From: Alphaproteobacteria bacterium
Lineage (GTDB): Bacteria; Pseudomonadota; Alphaproteobacteria; SHVV01
DNA length: 64,000 nt
Reading direction: 5' to 3'
Assembly (NCBI GenBank): GCA_965261735.1
Contig: OZ253470.1
Location: 4,832,001 to 4,896,000 of the forward strand
The notes under the pieces are model-generated. The model saw nothing but the letters and a program-made list of their open reading frames with translations, made no database searches and was not told the origin of the DNA. Both the position numbers and the translations under genes were made by a program. Below, piece by piece: positions 20,009 through 32,668 of the stretch. Within the stretch, counting starts at the first letter, position 1, and every line of letters begins with the position of its first letter.

Positions 20009-21403
20009 GGCTGTGTCTCGAAAGTGGTGGAAATTTGAGGATGGCGTAATCTCCGGGTGACAAGACAACCACCCAATCGGCGGCTAGCACCGCCAAGGAG
20101 ATCACGCCATGAAGAACACTACCGAGACTTCCGCGCTTTCGCTACTGGCCAATGACGCCGGCTATGATCCGTTCGAGGACCGGCTGCGGGAGAACATCAG
20201 ATCCACGATCGAGGCCGTTTTTGAGGAGGAACTTGCGCAGTTTCTCGGGCGCTGCCGATACGGTCGAGAGGACGCGCTTCGGCAAGGGTATCGGAACGGG
20301 CACCGGGAGCGGCAACTGACGGGGACATTCGGGACCGAGAGGGTGAGCGTGCCGCGTGCGCGGATCGTTGAGGAAGACGGTCGGGCGTCGGAATGGCGTT
20401 CGCGGGCGCTGCCGCGCTACCAGCGGCTGACCAGAAAGGCCGAGGCGCTGATCGCTTCGGTGTATCTGTCCGGAACCAACACGCGGCGGGTGAAACGCGC
20501 GCTGTTCGGGCTCTTCCGGGGTGCTGTGAGCAAGGACGTTGTGAGCCGGGCGTGGCGCAAGGTGAAGGTCGATTGGGACGCCTGGTGCAGCCGTGGCCTC
20601 GCGGATGAGGATATCGTTCGGCTGATCCTTGACGGCACTGTGATCAAGATCCGACTGGACCGCAAGGCCACCAACATCTCGGTTCTCGCGGCTATAGGGG
20701 TGCGCCGGGATGGCCAGAAGGTCTTGCTTTCGATCGGGAATATGGGCGGAGAAAGCCAGGCGGCGTGGCGCCAGTTCCTCGACGACCTTGATGCGCGTGG
20801 ACTGAAACGGCCCGGGTTTGTCATCGTCGATGGCGCGCCGGGACTGGAGGCGGCTCTGTCGGCGCTTTGGGGCGATGACCTTCCCGTTCAACGCTGCACC
20901 GTGCACAAGCACCGCAACCTTCTGGGTCATGCTCCCAAACACATGCATGACGAGCTGAGCGAAGATTACCGCGATATGATCTATGCTGACACTGCCTCCG
21001 AGGTGGAAACCCGCCGCAAGGCGTTTGTCCGCAAGTGGCGGCTGAAATGCAGGGCCGTCGCGGACAGCCTCGCAGAAGCGGGCGACAAGCTCTTTACCTT
21101 CAACGCGCCTGTCCAAGAGCCAATGGAAATCAGCCCGAACGACCAACGCCATTGAGCGTCTCAACGAGGAGTTCAAGCGCCGGATCAAAACACAGACCGT
21201 GCTGCCGTGTCCCGAAACAGTGCCGATGCTCCTCTGGGCGCTCCTCGCTTCCGGCCAAATCCAGATGCGCAAAGTCGATGGATGGGAAACCCTCGATCAG
21301 CTAATCGCCGACGAAACCCTTGACCGCGCGGCCTGACCGCCGCAAAACTCAACCCGCTCGGAGAGGCGCCAAAACCAATTTCCACCACTTTCGAGACACA
21401 ACC
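20009..21403 (+). mobile_element. IS256-family element B (1395 bp)
   Basis: TIRs GGCTGTGTCTCGAAAGTGGTGGAAATT / AATTTCCACCACTTTCGAGACACAACC; 8-bp TSD ATGCCCAA at 20001-20008 and 21404-21411. Confidence 0.95.
20109..21336 (+). pseudogene. IS256 transposase with a +1 frameshift near 21102
   Basis: The ORF stops at 21155, but the conserved TTNAIERLNEEFKRR...LDRAA* continues in another frame after TTC-AACG-CGC. Confidence 0.85.
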
Positions 21404-23831: not shown

Positions 23832-24065
23832 CCGCTACATCCGCGCCCGCTTGGATCCTCCCCCGACACCGGAGGAGCGCCCCCCCTTGATGCCGCGCAC
23901 CTTGTTGACTACGTTTTCGGCGATCCCCGCTGCGCGGGGAGGGCTCGTTGATGCGCGGCCACGCGCAGTCTACACCGGCGGATCGGCGTGGCAATCGGCG
24001 CAGCTATCGATGTCTGCGGGCGGAAGCGGGGAGGCGATGACGCACGGCGGCGAGGGGTCCATTCG

Positions 24066-27000
24066 GTGAGGCCGGTGCTTGGACAGATCGCCGGTGTTGC
24101 ACTCCTGAGCGCGCTCCTCGCCGGTTGCGCGATCCTCACGCCGCTACCCCAAAGGGTCACGTTATCCGAGCGCTTGGCGGTTTTTCCAACGGTCGGCCTG
24201 CCACTGCGCCAGCCGGTCATCATTTACTGGGACGACCACCAAATCCCCTTCATCGAGGCCGCGCACGATGAGGACCTGGCCGTCGCCCTGGGGCTGGTGC
24301 ACGCTCATCTGCGTCTCGGCCAAATGGAGGCCCTGAGGCGGGTGTCGCAGGGCCGTATGGCCGAGGTCGTTGGGCCGCTCGCGACCGATATCGATCATGC
24401 CTTGCGTATCGTGAATTTCGGCGCCGCGGTCCCGGACATGATCGAAGCCCTGCCCGCCGAGACGCGTCTATGGCTCGAGGCGTTCGTGCGCGGGGTCAAC
24501 CACTATCAGGAGCGGATGGTACGGCGGCCGCACGAATTCGCGGTGCTCGCGATCAAACCGGAACCGTGGAGCGTGGCGGACCTACTGACGATAGGACGGC
24601 TCGCCTCGGCGGACGTGAACTGGCTCGTGTGGTTTCAGCTCCTGAAACCGCGCGAGCGCCGGGACTGGCCGCAGTTGTGGGCGCGACTGGTCGACGAGGG
24701 AACCGCGTCGGTGCCGAGCTATGTCGCTGCCGCGCCGTCCTCGCTGGCGCAGCTCAGCGAACTCCTCGCCGGGCTCAGCCGTTCGGGCAGCAATTCCCTC
24801 GCCGTCAACGGCGCCCGCAGCGCGAGCGGCGGCGCGCTGATGGCGAGCGATCCCCACCTCGGCATATCGCTCCCCAACCTGTGGCTCGTTGCCGGCTACA
24901 AATCGCCGTCCTACCACGCGGTCGGGCTCATGATCCCGGGCCTGCCGTTCGTAGCGGTCGGGCGCAATCCGTGGATTGCCTGGGGCGGTACGAATCTTCG
25001 CGCCGCCAGCAGCGATCTCTACGACGTGTCGTCCCTCCCGGCCGACGCCATTGAGGAGCGCCGCGAGCACATCGCCGTGCGCGGATGGTTCGACCGCGAC
25101 ATCACGGTGCGGGTGGCACCCCACGGGCCGATCGTGACCGATGCTCCGATGCTGGACTCGGGGCCGGGAACAGCGCTGGCGTTACGCTGGATCGGGCACC
25201 GGCCGAGCGACGAGATGACGGCGATGCTCAACGTCAACCGCGCCCGCGATTGGCCCCAGTTTCGCGCCTCGCTGGCCGGCTTCGCGATCTCGGGCCAGAA
25301 CATGCTGTATGCGGACGCCAACGGTCACGTCGGCCAGACCATGGCGGCGCATCTGCCGCGCCGCGCGCTCGGCAGGCCCGCCGACATGGTGCTCGAGCCC
25401 GACGCCACGGCGCATTGGAACGAGGTCGTCACGGGCCGGGAGCTGCCGGCGCGCTTCGACCCGGCGGCGGGCTATCTCGCGTCGGCCAACAATCGCGGCG
25501 CCCACGCGGAAGTCCCGGTGGGCTACTTCTTTTCTCCCAACGACCGCATCGAGCGGCTCTCCGAGCTGCTCGAGTCGCGGCAGTCCATTGGCGTCGACGA
25601 CCTGGCCCGCGTACAGCGCGATGTTTACATGGCTTCCGCCGTAGCCCTGCGCGACCGGTTCGTCGCACGCCTCGAGTCGCCCGGCCTTTCGGGCCGTCTC
25701 GATCCCGAACACAAACAGCTGGTAGCCCGCCTCGCGGCGTGGGATGGGCACTACTCGGAGGACTCGCAGGGCGCGCTCGCATTTGAGCTCTTGCTCCACC
25801 ATTTCGTGGAGGCCTACTACGACGAAACCGCGCTCGACGCCTATTCGGCGGCTGGCCGGATGCTGAAGTTGATCAGGGACGACGTCGCCGGGGCGGACGA
25901 ATCGGCGCTCGCTCCGGTGCTCGTCGCGGCGCTGGACAATGCCGCCGAAGCGGCCGAGGGATTTACGGGCTGGGGCGACATGCACCGACTCGGCCTGGCG
26001 CATCCTCTGAGTTTCCTCCCGCTCATCGGATCGCGCTATCGCTTCGCCGACCTTCCTGCGGCGGGTAGCCGTTCGACCGTGATGAAGACCGCGCACGCCC
26101 TCACCGGCGAGCGCCATTTCACGCGCTATGGCTCCAATGCCCGGCACATCTCGGACCTCTCCGACGACGACCGCAACTACTTCGTTCTGCTCGGAGGCCA
26201 GGACGGCTGGTTCGGCAGCACGACGTTCATGGACCAGGTGGCGCTGTGGCAGCGCGGTGACTATGTGGAAGTCCCGCTCCGGTTGGATACAGTGCGCGCG
26301 AAGTTCTCCTATCGAACCGAGCTGGCTCCGCAACCTGTAGGGTTTTCGACGCGGGGCGGGCCCGCGGTCGCGCCACCATTTGTCATGCTCGACGCCACGC
26401 CTCTCTTCAGGCTTTATGCGCGCCGGCGCCGGCGCGCGCTGGAGGCGCTCGACCCGGTGGCGGCGCAGGAGAGCGCGCTTCTCCGCCTCCTCGCACGGGC
26501 GAGCGACACTCGTTTCGGGCGGGACCACCATTTCGCGGCCATTTCCAGCGTGGCCGATTTCCAGGCCCGCGTGCCGCTGCGACGCTACGAGGACTTCTGG
26601 GAGGCGTACTGGCGGCGCCCGTTCCCTCGGCTCGTCGATGTTACCTGGCCCGGCCTCATCCCCCATTTCGCCGTGACCTCGGGCACGACCACGGGTGTCA
26701 CCAAGTTCATCCCCTGCTCGCACGAGGTGTTGCGCGCCAACCGGCAAGCCGGCGCCGACGTGCTCGCCTATCACGTAGCGCATCGGCCTGCGAGCCAGGT
26801 GCTCGCCGGCAAGTCCTTCATGCTCGGCGGCAGCACCGACCTGACGCAGCGCGCACCTGGCGTGCTCAGTGGCGATCTCAGCGGCATCGCCGCCCGCACG
26901 ACGCCCTGGTGGGCGCGCTCACGCACCTTTCCCCCGCCCCGGCTCGCGCTCATCGAGGACTGGGAGCGGAAGGTAGAGACTCTCGCGGCGCTGTCGCTGC

Positions 27001-27914
27001 GGCAGGATATCCGTTCGTTGAGCGGCACGCCGAGCTGGCTGCTCGTCTTTTTCGACAAGCTCGCCGCGCTCCGCCCGCAAGGGGGCCCGCGCATGATCGA
27101 TTTCTACCCTCGGCTCGAGCTTCTAGTGCACGGTGGTGTCCCATTCGCGCCCTACCGGCGGCGGTTCGAAACTCTGCTCGAAGGAAGTCGGGCCGACCTG
27201 CGCGAAGTCTACGCGGCGAGCGAAGGCTTCATCGCCATCGCCGACCGCGGCGCCGACGATGGGCTCAGGCTCGCCCTGGACAACGGGCTGTTCTTCGAGT
27301 TCGTTCCCGTCGGCGAACTCGACAACCCCAATCCCGTGCGCCACTGGCTGGCCACGGTCGAGCCGGAGGTGAATTACGCGCTCGTGCTGAGCAGCTGCGC
27401 CGGGCTGTGGGCTTACGTCGTCGGTGACACGGTGCGCTTCGTCGCGCGCCATCCGCCCCGCATCGTCGTAACCGGCCGCACGTCCTACACGCTGTCCGCC
27501 TTTGGCGAGCACCTCATCGCCGAGGAGGTCGAGGCGGCGGTCGCCGACGCGGCGGCCGAGACCGGCACAACTGTCGCGGACTACGCCGTGGGTGCCACTT
27601 TTCCGCAACACGTGGGCGAGCTCGGCGGCCACCTCTATGTCGTCGAGTTCGCCGATGGCCTCCCGACCATGGGCCAGCTCGCCGCCTTCGCGCGGGCGCT
27701 CGATGTACGGTTGTGCGAGACCAACGAGGACTACGCGGCCCACCGCGCCGGTGGATTCGGGCTCAATGCGCCCCGCGTTCAAGCGCTCTCCCGCGGCGGC
27801 TTCGCCGCATGGATGAAAAGCCGAGGTCAGCTCGGCGGTCAACACAAGGTGCCGCGCCTCATCAGCGATGAGGCGCTGTTCCGTGCCTTGAGGGAGTTTG
27901 CCGGCAGCGGCTGA
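24066..27914 (+). CDS. Fusion of a lipoprotein penicillin-acylase-family (Ntn) amidase and a GH3-family acyl-amido synthetase
   Basis: Lipobox LAGC; IYWDDHQIPFI; nucleophile motif GSNSLAV; SDPHL; ASANN. From ATG 26385 (MLDATP) the GH3 motifs TSGTT.G..KFIP, YAASE, YVVGD, GRT and GGQHKVPR follow with no stop codon between the halves. Confidence 0.85.
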   Translation: MRPVLGQIAGVALLSALLAGCAILTPLPQRVTLSERLAVFPTVGLPLRQPVIIYWDDHQIPFIEAAHDEDLAVALGLVHAHLRLGQMEALRRVSQGRMAEVVGPLATDIDHALRIVNFGAAVPDMIEALPAETRLWLEAFVRGVNHYQERMVRRPHEFAVLAIKPEPWSVADLLTIGRLASADVNWLVWFQLLKPRERRDWPQLWARLVDEGTASVPSYVAAAPSSLAQLSELLAGLSRSGSNSLAVNGARSASGGALMASDPHLGISLPNLWLVAGYKSPSYHAVGLMIPGLPFVAVGRNPWIAWGGTNLRAASSDLYDVSSLPADAIEERREHIAVRGWFDRDITVRVAPHGPIVTDAPMLDSGPGTALALRWIGHRPSDEMTAMLNVNRARDWPQFRASLAGFAISGQNMLYADANGHVGQTMAAHLPRRALGRPADMVLEPDATAHWNEVVTGRELPARFDPAAGYLASANNRGAHAEVPVGYFFSPNDRIERLSELLESRQSIGVDDLARVQRDVYMASAVALRDRFVARLESPGLSGRLDPEHKQLVARLAAWDGHYSEDSQGALAFELLLHHFVEAYYDETALDAYSAAGRMLKLIRDDVAGADESALAPVLVAALDNAAEAAEGFTGWGDMHRLGLAHPLSFLPLIGSRYRFADLPAAGSRSTVMKTAHALTGERHFTRYGSNARHISDLSDDDRNYFVLLGGQDGWFGSTTFMDQVALWQRGDYVEVPLRLDTVRAKFSYRTELAPQPVGFSTRGGPAVAPPFVMLDATPLFRLYARRRRRALEALDPVAAQESALLRLLARASDTRFGRDHHFAAISSVADFQARVPLRRYEDFWEAYWRRPFPRLVDVTWPGLIPHFAVTSGTTTGVTKFIPCSHEVLRANRQAGADVLAYHVAHRPASQVLAGKSFMLGGSTDLTQRAPGVLSGDLSGIAARTTPWWARSRTFPPPRLALIEDWERKVETLAALSLRQDIRSLSGTPSWLLVFFDKLAALRPQGGPRMIDFYPRLELLVHGGVPFAPYRRRFETLLEGSRADLREVYAASEGFIAIADRGADDGLRLALDNGLFFEFVPVGELDNPNPVRHWLATVEPEVNYALVLSSCAGLWAYVVGDTVRFVARHPPRIVVTGRTSYTLSAFGEHLIAEEVEAAVADAAAETGTTVADYAVGATFPQHVGELGGHLYVVEFADGLPTMGQLAAFARALDVRLCETNEDYAAHRAGGFGLNAPRVQALSRGGFAAWMKSRGQLGGQHKVPRLISDEALFRALREFAGSG

Positions 27915-28003
27915 AGGGTGACCACGTTTTCCGTCGACAGCGATTGCGGCCTTCGCGCAAGATGCGCGCGCGTAGACGATCAAGAATATTACGGGAGGGC
28001 AAC

Positions 28004-28831
28004 ATGCGCATCAGCTTCACGGACGTCGATGGCGTCAACACTCGCTACTACCACGAGGGCGAGGGCTATCCGCTGGTGCTCGTGCATGGCGGCGGCGTCT
28101 CGGCGGACAACTGGGCTTCAAGCATCGATCGGCTGGCGAAGGATTTCGCCGTGTACGCGCCGGACATGTTGGGGAGCGGGTTCACCGATACGATCGACCT
28201 CAAGGGCGAGCCGCCGCAGCTTCACAACGTCGCGCACCTACGGAAGTTCCTCGACCAGCTGGGGATCGAGCGCTGCGCCATCGGCGGCAGCTCGTATGGC
28301 GCGCTGATCTCGGCGCTCACCTACTTCGATCGCCCGGAGCGCATTGAAAAGCTGATACTGATCGGTAGTGCGTCCGTGTTTCATCCGCCCGAGGAATTGA
28401 CGAGTTCCCTCGATGGCACCCGCAAGAACGCCACCTCGGCGCTCGGCAATCCAACGTTCGAGACCTGTCACGCCCGGCTCGGGCGCATCTTTTACGACAA
28501 GTCAAAGATACCCGACGACGTTATTCTCACTCAGCTCACGATCTACGCCCAACCCGATCGCCTGCCCTATTTCCAGCAGTTCCTCGACGGCATGGTGGCG
28601 TCGGTCAATTCTCCGGCGCATCGGGTCTTCGAGCGACTCGAGGAGATCAAGGTGCCGACGCTGACCATCCAGGGACGCGACGACATTCGTGCCAAGCTGC
28701 CGGTCATCCAGGAGCAGCACAAGCGCCTGCCCAACTCGAATCTCGTCATCGTCGACGAGTGCGGGCACATGCCGCACCTTGAGCACAACGACAGGTTCTG
28801 CCAGCTGGTAACCGACTTCGTTCGCGGCTAG
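28004..28831 (+). CDS. Alpha/beta-fold hydrolase (BphD/MhpC-like)
   Basis: VHGGG, GSSYG nucleophile elbow, QGRDD and CGHMPH motifs. Confidence 0.85.
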   Translation: MRISFTDVDGVNTRYYHEGEGYPLVLVHGGGVSADNWASSIDRLAKDFAVYAPDMLGSGFTDTIDLKGEPPQLHNVAHLRKFLDQLGIERCAIGGSSYGALISALTYFDRPERIEKLILIGSASVFHPPEELTSSLDGTRKNATSALGNPTFETCHARLGRIFYDKSKIPDDVILTQLTIYAQPDRLPYFQQFLDGMVASVNSPAHRVFERLEEIKVPTLTIQGRDDIRAKLPVIQEQHKRLPNSNLVIVDECGHMPHLEHNDRFCQLVTDFVRG

Positions 28832-31208: not shown

Positions 31209-31397
31209 TACGCTTGCGGTGGTGCTGCGGAGGCTACCGTCCGTGGTGTCCGCTCGGCAAGTTGCTTTCAACTGACCAGCAGCCAGGGGTTCTGCCAGAA
31301 GGGTCTTCAGGGCGAGGTTCGAAGGGCCGCGGTTGCGGGGGCCCGGGTTTCGCGGTTGAATGGACCGCGCCCGCGTCCCGCAGATCCCGGAGCATAT

Positions 31398-31907
31398 GTG
31401 GACGACAAAGGCAGCCTTATCATCGAACAGATACCGCGGTTGCGGCGGTATGCGAGGGCGTTGACCGGCAACCAAACGCTCGCCGACGACCTGGTGCAGG
31501 ACTGTCTCGAGCGCGCCTGGAGCCGCTTCTATCTGTGGCGCCGGGGCAGCAACCTGAGGGCCTGGCTGTTTACGATCTTGCACAATCAATACGCCAACAT
31601 GGTGCGCCGCGAACGCCGGCGGCCCACGCTCGTCCCACTCAGCGACAGGGGTAGCGAGCGTGCCGTCGATCCGGCCCAGGAAGCGTACGTCGAGATCGGC
31701 AGCGTCGCGGTGGCGTTGCGCCAGCTGCCGGAGGAGCAGCGCGCCGTCATCCTCCTCGTCGGGCTCGAGGGCATGACATACGCGGAGGCCGCCAAGGTCT
31801 TGGAGGTACCGATAGGCACGGTGATGTCGCGCCTTGCGCGCGGGCGGGCCCGCCTGCGGCTGCTCGTTTCAGGCGTCGACCCGGCGCGGCGGAAAGAGGG
31901 AACATGA
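31398..31907 (+). CDS. ECF sigma factor (PrtI/ECF26-like)
   Basis: IPRLRRYARAL..ADDLVQDCLERA..LRAWLFTI..IGTVMSRLARGR. Confidence 0.92.
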   Translation: MDDKGSLIIEQIPRLRRYARALTGNQTLADDLVQDCLERAWSRFYLWRRGSNLRAWLFTILHNQYANMVRRERRRPTLVPLSDRGSERAVDPAQEAYVEIGSVAVALRQLPEEQRAVILLVGLEGMTYAEAAKVLEVPIGTVMSRLARGRARLRLLVSGVDPARRKEGT

Positions 31908-32668
31908 CCAAGCGCCCGATTCCAGTCACCGAGGACGAGCTCCACGCTTACGTGGATGACAGCCTCGATGCGGCGGCGCGCGCGGCGGTCGAGGCCCACC
32001 TCGAGGGGCATCCGGAGGATGCCGAGCGCGTGCGCGGGTACCGGGCGGACCGGGAGATCCTGCATGCACTCTATGATACCGTCCTCGATGAGCCCATTCC
32101 GCCGGCGATGCTGCGCCGACACCGACTCCACCAACGCCCGTGGATCGGCAGGGCAGCGGCCGCGTTGCTCGGTGTCGTCGTCGGTGGCGCGGGCGGCTGG
32201 TGGCTCAACGATAGCGCGGGCGGGCGCACCGCCCTGGGTGGTCTCTTCGCCGAGGACGCGCTGGTCGCCCACATCGTGTATGCGCCCGAGATTCGTCATG
32301 CCGTCGAGGTCGCGGCGAGCGACGAGGCGCATCTCGTCGGCTGGCTGTCGAAACGGGTCGGTACCCCGATAAAGGCGCCGCGGCTCGACGAGGCCGGATT
32401 CGAGCTCGTCGGCGGGCGCCTGGTCCCTGCGGCTCGGGCACCCGTCGCCCAATTCATGTATGAGAACACGAAGGGCGAGCGCCTCACTCTCTACCTTCGC
32501 CACTTTGACACGAGCGATCGCGAGACGGCGTTCCGATACGACCGCCGCGGCGACGTCGGCGCTCTCTACTGGATCCATAGCCCGCTCGGCTACGCCGTCG
32601 TCGGCGAGATGGACCGCGAAGCCCTGCTCAAGCTCGCCAAGCTCGTGTACATGCAGTTCAGTCCCTAA
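31904..32668 (+). CDS. Transmembrane anti-sigma factor (PrtR-like)
   Basis: EDELHAYVD, a TM helix, HAVEV..HLVGWLSKR and GFELVGGRL; overlaps the sigma stop. Confidence 0.9.
   Translation: MTKRPIPVTEDELHAYVDDSLDAAARAAVEAHLEGHPEDAERVRGYRADREILHALYDTVLDEPIPPAMLRRHRLHQRPWIGRAAAALLGVVVGGAGGWWLNDSAGGRTALGGLFAEDALVAHIVYAPEIRHAVEVAASDEAHLVGWLSKRVGTPIKAPRLDEAGFELVGGRLVPAARAPVAQFMYENTKGERLTLYLRHFDTSDRETAFRYDRRGDVGALYWIHSPLGYAVVGEMDREALLKLAKLVYMQFSP

Follow-up and report, generated by a model that had tools for sequence, protein, structure and literature searches.

The lyso-ornithine lipid synthetase OlsH, reported in 2025 from the planctomycete Singulisphaera acidiphila, joins a free fatty acid to ornithine with ATP and Mg, as set out in the main text of that report (PMC12493201). 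The same text gives motif 2 of the enzyme as TYPCSE and motif 3 as GMWSHLIGD, and reports from an S115A result that S115 of motif 1 is needed (PMC12493201). The second acyl chain is added by OlsI, an alpha/beta-hydrolase partner of OlsH (PMC12493201). OlsH was inactive in living E. coli, for which the authors suspect a shortage of free fatty acid (PMC12493201). We analysed a 64,000-nucleotide stretch of an alphaproteobacterial genome (GCA_965261735.1, contig OZ253470.1, positions 4,832,001 to 4,896,000, forward strand; hereafter the window) in which a single long open frame at 24066-27914 (+) joins a penicillin-amidase-family acylase to a GH3 acyl-acid amido synthetase resembling OlsH. This ORF of 3.85 kb very probably represents two genes of one operon that were merged through loss of a stop codon. 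The fusion is no new architecture; the acylase/OlsH-like operon is the new element.

The frame is open without interruption from 23988 to 27914 (+), which corresponds to 1308 aa counted from the first GTG, and the recorded protein form (P0122) starts at GTG 24066 and has 1282 aa. Residues 76-770 match Penicil_amidase (Pfam PF01804, E 2e-148, 496.8 bits) over profile positions 1-674 of 675. The GH3 N, M and C domains (PF03321, PF23571 and PF23572) occupy residues 822-1295 and all pass the Pfam cut-offs, with 90.7, 45.4 and 58.4 bits against a gathering cut-off of 23.6 for each. Both halves are thus full-length family matches, and a chance origin of the long frame in GC-rich DNA can be dismissed. 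The acylase part (24066-26330 (+)) belongs to the Ntn hydrolases and has the features of a lipoprotein; in relatives it is a stand-alone gene of ~755 aa. Read directly from the sequence, its lipobox LAGC (24117-24128 (+), Cys21 of the precursor) follows a short hydrophobic signal segment. The motif GSNSLAV (24786-24806 (+)) contains Ser242, which by alignment to solved beta chains is the predicted N-terminal nucleophile of the beta chain that autoproteolysis would release. The GH3 part has its own ATG at 26385 and extends to 27914 (+) as a gene of 509 aa plus TGA, whose score comes close to the cut-off of the OlsH model NF052613. It carries the nucleotide-binding motifs TSGTTTGVTK (motif 1, 26676-26705 (+), with the Ser equivalent to S115 of OlsH), VYAASE (motif 2, 27207-27224 (+)) and GLWAYVVGD (motif 3, 27402-27428 (+)), and QHKVPR near its C-terminus (27840-27857 (+)). 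Between the two parts lie a CAA codon (26331-26333 (+)), which stands in place of the acylase stop codon of relatives, and the former intergenic spacer (26334-26384 (+)), whose 51 nt are in frame and stop-free and now encode 17 linker residues. Promoter-like and terminator-like sites were not found in the spacer, the scan performing no better than shuffled controls. The linker of 18 aa between CAA 26331 and ATG 26385 reads QPVGFSTRGGPAVAPPFV. A first-pass annotation of this DNA had proposed an uninterrupted ORF with an acylase and a GH3 half. Frame reading and Pfam bear this out, and the motifs it listed (LAGC, GSNSLAV, TSGTT, YAASE, YVVGD and QHKVPR) as well as CAA 26331, ATG 26385 and the 18-aa linker are all where it placed them.

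Contigs from four public sequencing runs (X1, X5, X9 and X10) were compared over 25900-26800. X1, X9 and X10, which represent near-identical strains from three other studies, have T at 26331 and therefore a TAA stop. C at this position was found only in X5, the probable source sample of the window (contig mean word depth 4.69). Three sponge-metagenome runs contained small shares of the sampled words and did not enter the comparison. Protein records gave the same picture. Of the 18 members of the 90% identity cluster of the window protein 15 are listed, and among these the fused 1282-aa form comes only from the window's own contig of 5,031,631 bases. Acylases of 755 aa account for six of the others, GH3 proteins of 509 aa for five, truncated acylases of 583 aa for two and a GH3 protein of 454 aa for one. 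P0003 (755 aa, a 99% identical acylase) terminates in ELAP, both it and P0004 end at the Pro directly before CAA 26331, and the 509-aa GH3 proteins of near-identical strains begin with MLDATPLF, the equivalent of ATG 26385. The stop is thus ancestral, and the allele in the window arose from it by a T-to-C stop loss. The first-pass annotation had itself put forward this explanation as an alternative to its own proposal, namely accidental read-through with CAA 26331 as a former TAA.

The acylase gene shows a further variant in this species. The 583-aa acylases of two near-identical strains (P0131 and P0134) end immediately before the Tyr codon TAC 25815-25817. One of them is on a 140,521-base contig, and an intact 509-aa GH3 protein is also recorded on a 140,521-base contig. 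Judged from these records, the acylase gene appears to be truncated in some strains, besides being fused here.

The stop at the junction is retained far beyond these strains. Among 401 genomes of the same class, 46 further genomes contained an OlsH-like match, and the long stop-free frame was found in the window's genome only; a frame in G357 attains 1303 aa only by reading through a TGA. The acylase stop was present at 21/21, 3/3 and 15/15 junctions, that is at all 39 that were read in sequence, where the set of 15 came from a separate scan of named genomes. Eight more adjacent pairs were assessed by coordinates, and in these the GH3 open frames measure 513-545 aa. Outside the window's genome, a fusion occurs in 0 of 47 adjacent acylase-GH3 pairs. 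At 27 of the 36 junctions scored for frame the two genes are in different frames (same frame, 9/36), and in one set of related junctions the GH3 start codon lies at, or no more than 3 nt from, the homologous position in 21/21. A query made up of the acylase's final 377 aa, the linker and the GH3 half was searched exhaustively against 1.84 billion representative proteins. Among the best 150 of 8610 matches no protein spanned both halves; each of these 150 was a GH3 protein or an acylase alone, with lengths of 228-809 aa. A search by word index for longer, fused GH3 relatives had no matches, missed even the window's own fused protein and was treated as uninformative. Consequently the make-and-break fusion enzyme that the first-pass annotation had envisaged does not hold, given stops at 39/39 junctions of relatives and split genes in near-identical strains. 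It had named a junction stop in relatives as a sign against the fusion, and such a stop is present in three strains and at the 39 distant junctions. It had also expected that, if the fusion were accidental, the genes would not be conserved neighbours; on this point the relatives contradict it, and acylase-GH3 adjacency is conserved.

Two other ORFs bear on the question of fusion. P0002, from an 8.5-kb metagenome contig, is the sole junction-spanning relative among the 120 listed. Its 723 aa comprise only the last ~200 aa of an acylase plus the GH3 protein, without the catalytic N-terminal two thirds of the acylase. Valine occupies the GH3 start position in P0002, and no significant acylase match was obtained for the first 25 residues. 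By its sequence P0002 looks like a decayed or frameshifted copy. P0018, a metagenome ORF of 845 aa, begins as an OlsH-like GH3 protein and continues into a low-complexity stretch rich in Arg, Ser and Pro; a Poly_export domain is precomputed for this ORF, which resembles a frameshifted read-through and not a true fusion.

Certain observations weigh against the stop-loss interpretation. C at 26331 is carried by the assembly and by one contig (depth 4.69), probably from the same sample, and so lacks independent confirmation. P0002 is a second fused ORF, and read-through has thus occurred at least twice. A Shine-Dalgarno (SD)-like sequence was not found upstream of ATG 26385, which bears on initiation of the GH3 gene even in the split form.

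A base-call or assembly error, by which the organism would truly have TAA at 26331 and the fused ORF would exist only in the deposited sequence, is an improbable explanation. T in all three other strains compared is what it would lead one to expect, and single-contig differences below depth 5, as on the sole supporting contig, may be errors. However, the X5 contig was assembled separately, agrees with the window in the C at 26331 and has 0 other mismatches to it over 901 bases, and every sampled word of the stretch is present in each of the runs X5-X8 of the probable source sample. The window strain is also unlike X1, X9 and X10 at 26365 and 26582, which marks it as a distinct lineage with true substitutions nearby. 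A selected bifunctional enzyme, an adaptive fusion channelling acyl groups from hydrolase to ligase within one polypeptide, can be set aside as highly improbable: the frame is intact across 1282 aa, the catalytic motifs are kept in both halves and P0002 provides another read-through ORF, but no fusion occurs in 47 adjacent pairs, frames differ at 27/36 junctions, near-identical strains have split genes, the best 150 matches of the exhaustive search contain no fused form, P0002 is without the catalytic two thirds of its acylase, and the lipoprotein signal would put an ATP-dependent domain outside the cytoplasm. With the fusion enzyme unsupported, the ORF should not be recorded as a new domain architecture.

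What the stop-loss allele would do to the two products can be considered from the reading frame. Because the 51-nt spacer is in frame and stop-free, translation would run on into the OlsH-like GH3 gene. The signal peptide of the fused product would then send the GH3 part to Sec export and into a compartment without ATP, and working GH3 protein could come only via internal initiation at ATG 26385. This routing, together with the lack of an SD-like sequence before that ATG, suggests that the allele either has no effect or reduces GH3 function. In all likelihood, then, the fusion is neutral or harmful and does not represent a new bifunctional enzyme.

What is conserved is an operon of two closely spaced genes, in which an exported acylase is followed by a cytoplasmic OlsH-like enzyme. 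An OlsH-like GH3 gene directly follows an exported acylase at 47 loci in Alphaproteobacteria and a few other Pseudomonadota. Intergenic spacing ranges from -8 to +74 nt at 36 junctions and is ~200-400 nt at two (L068 and L069), and the genes share a 4-nt overlap (ATGA or GTGA) at 13 junctions. Such close spacing and frequent overlaps suggest translational coupling. In the 46 other GH3-positive genomes of the class, a same-strand acylase is immediately upstream in 31, an orthologous acylase is located elsewhere in 8, a contig end prevents judgement in 3 and no acylase was found in 4. Completeness is 99-100% for two of these last four genomes and 74-88% for the other two. Where the GH3 gene has no neighbouring acylase, an acylase ortholog was found elsewhere in 4/5 genomes checked. 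The idea of a functional link between amide hydrolysis and amide synthesis, suggested by the first-pass annotation, thus survives in the form of a conserved operon, though not of a fusion.

Co-occurrence was cross-tabulated in the 401 genomes with the GH3 gene scored at E up to 1e-50 and the acylase at E up to 1e-120. Both genes were present in 41 genomes, the GH3 gene only in 6, the acylase only in 18 and neither in 336. In an initial set of 36 relatives, none had the acylase ortholog but no GH3 gene; the rule that this suggested was overturned by the larger sample with its 18 acylase-only genomes. In these 18 genomes no GH3 remnant was found beside the acylase at E up to 1e-5, nor was there a common downstream gene; examples of downstream products are Macro, PhoH, isochorismatase, trypsin-like and Fur proteins. 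ORFs were also clustered across 20 related loci and the window. Apart from the acylase and GH3 genes and the antisense shadow ORFs of both, no cluster recurred across loci, and a third conserved gene near the pair was not found.

Some loci depart from this layout. L043 (G269:C1:153092-156125) has a tandem pair of OlsH-like GH3 genes without an adjacent acylase, the acylase ortholog being ~770 kb away. L157 (G087:C239:178-4784) has tandem orthologous acylases that are 55-57% identical to that of the window, with no GH3 match in a genome that is 79% complete. At L165 (G059:C4), genes for a thiolase and an AMP-binding enzyme lie downstream of, and on the same strand as, a distant acylase (37% identical), a single hint of fatty-acid activation neighbours.

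To place the acylase-linked GH3 genes, a tree was built from 79 GH3 sequences. From the group of 46 loci with 35-40% identity, mostly Bacteroidota, 38 were omitted and the other eight served as outgroup. All 38 acylase-linked GH3 genes fall within one clade of 63 sequences (SH-aLRT 95), whose sister group is a planctomycete clade with Isosphaeraceae among its members (SH-aLRT 98). Inside the 63-sequence clade acylase linkage was lost or gained at least eight times. In the scan of named genomes, the GH3 gene is preceded by an alpha/beta hydrolase in 7/9 loci of the 42-51% identity group, which consists of planctomycete or unclassified metagenome-assembled genome (MAG) loci; this arrangement is that of the published OlsH/OlsI. 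A same-strand upstream acylase was found in 0/46 loci of the 35-40% identity group. A publication on the acylase/OlsH-like pairing was not found in the literature searched, and the words acylase and amidase are absent from the main text of both OlsH papers.

The GH3 half is close to OlsH without reaching the threshold of its model. It scores 602.7 bits against NCBIfam NF052613 (OlsH, lyso-ornithine lipid synthetase, equivalog), below the cut-off of 620, and 606.2 bits in the genome scan, still below 620; the cut-off was reached by 0/401 class genomes. All three OlsH nucleotide-binding motifs are present, including the Ser equivalent to S115, and in 14 sequences S99, G100 and T101 of motif 1, Y276, S279 and E280 of motif 2, and G340, G347 and D348 of motif 3 are invariant. 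In the whole genome of the window the best match to the OlsI model reaches 73.2 bits against a cut-off of 385. Since both the score cut-off and the OlsI partner failed, we call the GH3 half OlsH-like. Its likeness to the OlsH of S. acidiphila, as far as the main text describes that system (PMC12493201), consists of the near-cut-off score, the three motifs and the sister-clade position; unlike in that system, its partner is an upstream exported acylase of the penicillin-amidase family and not the alpha/beta-hydrolase OlsI. The statement of the first-pass annotation that bacterial GH3 proteins are poorly characterised is partly out of date in view of this resemblance, at least for the part of the family described with OlsH (PMC12493201). 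With the plant GH3 enzymes JAR1, GH3.8 and VvGH3-1 the GH3 half shares a three-domain fold family, and by family membership it would act by two-step adenylation and amide ligation. In contrast to the plant enzymes it has a bacterial context and its substrates are likely lipids, and the similarity is weak (best PDB match E 8.4e-9, partial).

An alpha/beta-hydrolase ORF (27944-28831 (+), Pfam Abhydrolase_1) begins 30 nt past the GH3 stop and was considered as a candidate OlsI. It was ruled out, with 65.8 bits against the cut-off of 385 and no conservation beside the GH3 gene; in related loci of the proteobacterial type no counterpart adjoining the GH3 gene was found. We regard it as local context only. 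The hydrolase is 24-27% identical to the hydrolases that adjoin planctomycete OlsH genes.

Among solved structures the acylase half comes nearest to D-succinylase (7ea4, E 8.9e-43), with penicillin G and glutaryl-7-ACA acylases ranking next. Ser242 is the residue from which beta chains of known structure align (in 4hst_B, for instance, with residue 1), and D-succinylase has LGSNNW at the position of the GSN motif. With this group the window acylase shares the full PF01804 domain, a GSN Ser that aligns with residue 1 of solved beta chains and, as in periplasmic acylases, an export signal. It differs from the solved members in being only distantly similar to them, and in having a lipoprotein signal and a partner GH3 ligase gene. 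A lipobox containing Cys was matched in 11/18 and 9/14 related acylases in two sets, and two further acylases of the set of 14 have L-P-G-C, which the lipobox pattern did not count. PvdQ and the acyl-homoserine lactone acylases belong to the same Pfam family, and their deacylation of amides outside the cytoplasm is the kind of activity that we propose for the window acylase. The latter is nevertheless far from PvdQ, matching its equivalog model (NCBIfam NF051460) with only 21 and 23.5 bits over ~80 residues against a cut-off of 950, and none of the 55 PDB sequences with a match at E up to 0.001 was a PvdQ chain. The window's genome has two more penicillin-amidase paralogues, 34-35% identical (G000:C1:3912596-3914851 (-) and 4402359-4404575 (-)), and paralogues at ~27-36% identity are common in relatives that have no GH3 gene.

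The acylase product bears an export signal and the GH3 ligase is without one. We infer that the function of the pair is salvage or turnover of acyl amides across the inner membrane. The acylase, predicted to be exported and in about two thirds of relatives lipid-anchored, would hydrolyse an N-acyl amide outside the cytoplasm. In the cytoplasm the GH3 enzyme would adenylate a free fatty acid with ATP and then ligate the acyl chain to ornithine or a related amino acid, yielding a lyso-aminolipid. We tentatively favour salvage, in which a fatty acid freed by the acylase in the periplasm becomes the substrate of the GH3 enzyme inside the cell, so that the net outcome would be an ATP-driven acyl transfer from an outside amide to ornithine. 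The evidence leans this way in that the GH3 gene is rarely found without the acylase and the acylase more often without the GH3 gene. Likewise, the inactivity of OlsH in living E. coli, with the suspected shortage of free fatty acid (PMC12493201), points toward salvage. So does an OlsB-like gene for the acyl-ACP route in the window's genome. This ornithine N-acyltransferase gene (L152:1108-1962 (-), equal to G000:C1 ~835,100-835,960) scores 307 bits against a cut-off of 320, and with it the genome may have a second, acyl-ACP-dependent route to N-acyl-ornithine. It is possible, if somewhat unlikely, that the pair carries out an undescribed two-compartment transamidation: outside amides (for example acyl-homoserine lactones, N-acyl amino acids or aminolipids) would be deacylated and the chains joined again, with consumption of ATP, to ornithine or a related amino acid inside the cell.

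Several results count against so specific an assignment. The sub-cut-off OlsH score and the absence of a detected OlsI leave ornithine unproven as the acceptor. The nearest solved relative of the acylase acts on N-succinyl-D-amino acids and not on fatty acyl amides; activity of the window acylase on fatty acyl amides is putative. The co-occurrence pattern fits product turnover equally well as salvage, and related genomes are not independent samples in these counts.

Turnover is a rival explanation that we consider rather unlikely. By this explanation the GH3 enzyme would make an N-acyl amino acid or lyso-aminolipid in the cytoplasm and the acylase would deacylate it at the outer face of the inner membrane, for remodelling or release of the head group. 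Its logic resembles that of pyoverdine synthesis, in which PvdL acylates and PvdQ afterwards deacylates in the periplasm. Salvage would involve the same compartments, and acylase-only genomes could process lipids from OlsB-type enzymes, an OlsB-like gene being present here. In the planctomycete sister clade, moreover, the operon partner is an alpha/beta hydrolase (upstream in 7/9 loci) that acts on the OlsH product, as the main text on OlsH describes (PMC12493201). On the other hand, the present data provide no rationale for an ATP-consuming cycle of synthesis and hydrolysis, the PvdQ model gives only 21-23.5 bits against 950, and the co-occurrence counts cannot separate turnover from salvage.

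The acylase might instead replace OlsI as an acyl-transferase, its acyl-enzyme intermediate adding a second, ester-linked fatty acid to the lyso-lipid made by GH3. The OlsH clade that pairs with OlsI-like hydrolases is the sister group of the acylase-linked one, no OlsI was found at cut-off in the window's genome, and penicillin acylases carry out acyl transfer in vitro. We nonetheless judge this to be improbable, since to our knowledge no physiological transferase of the penicillin-amidase family is known, 18 genomes keep the acylase without a GH3 gene, and there was no sign of a periplasmic acyl donor.

Elsewhere in the window, a Mutator-family transposase ORF (20109-21155 (+), PF00872, E 6e-58) lies ~3 kb upstream of the operon, and an ECF-type sigma factor (PhyR_sigma2, Sigma70 r2/r4) followed by a zf-HC2 anti-sigma ORF is encoded at 31356-32668 (+).

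The acylase partner suggests a source of free fatty acid for OlsH-type enzymes that can be tested, or else a turnover step. Two-compartment transamidation, if true, would explain where OlsH-type enzymes get their free fatty acid and would represent a further configuration of aminolipid synthesis in Proteobacteria. Salvage or turnover, if true, would extend what is known of the phosphorus-free membrane lipids of bacteria.

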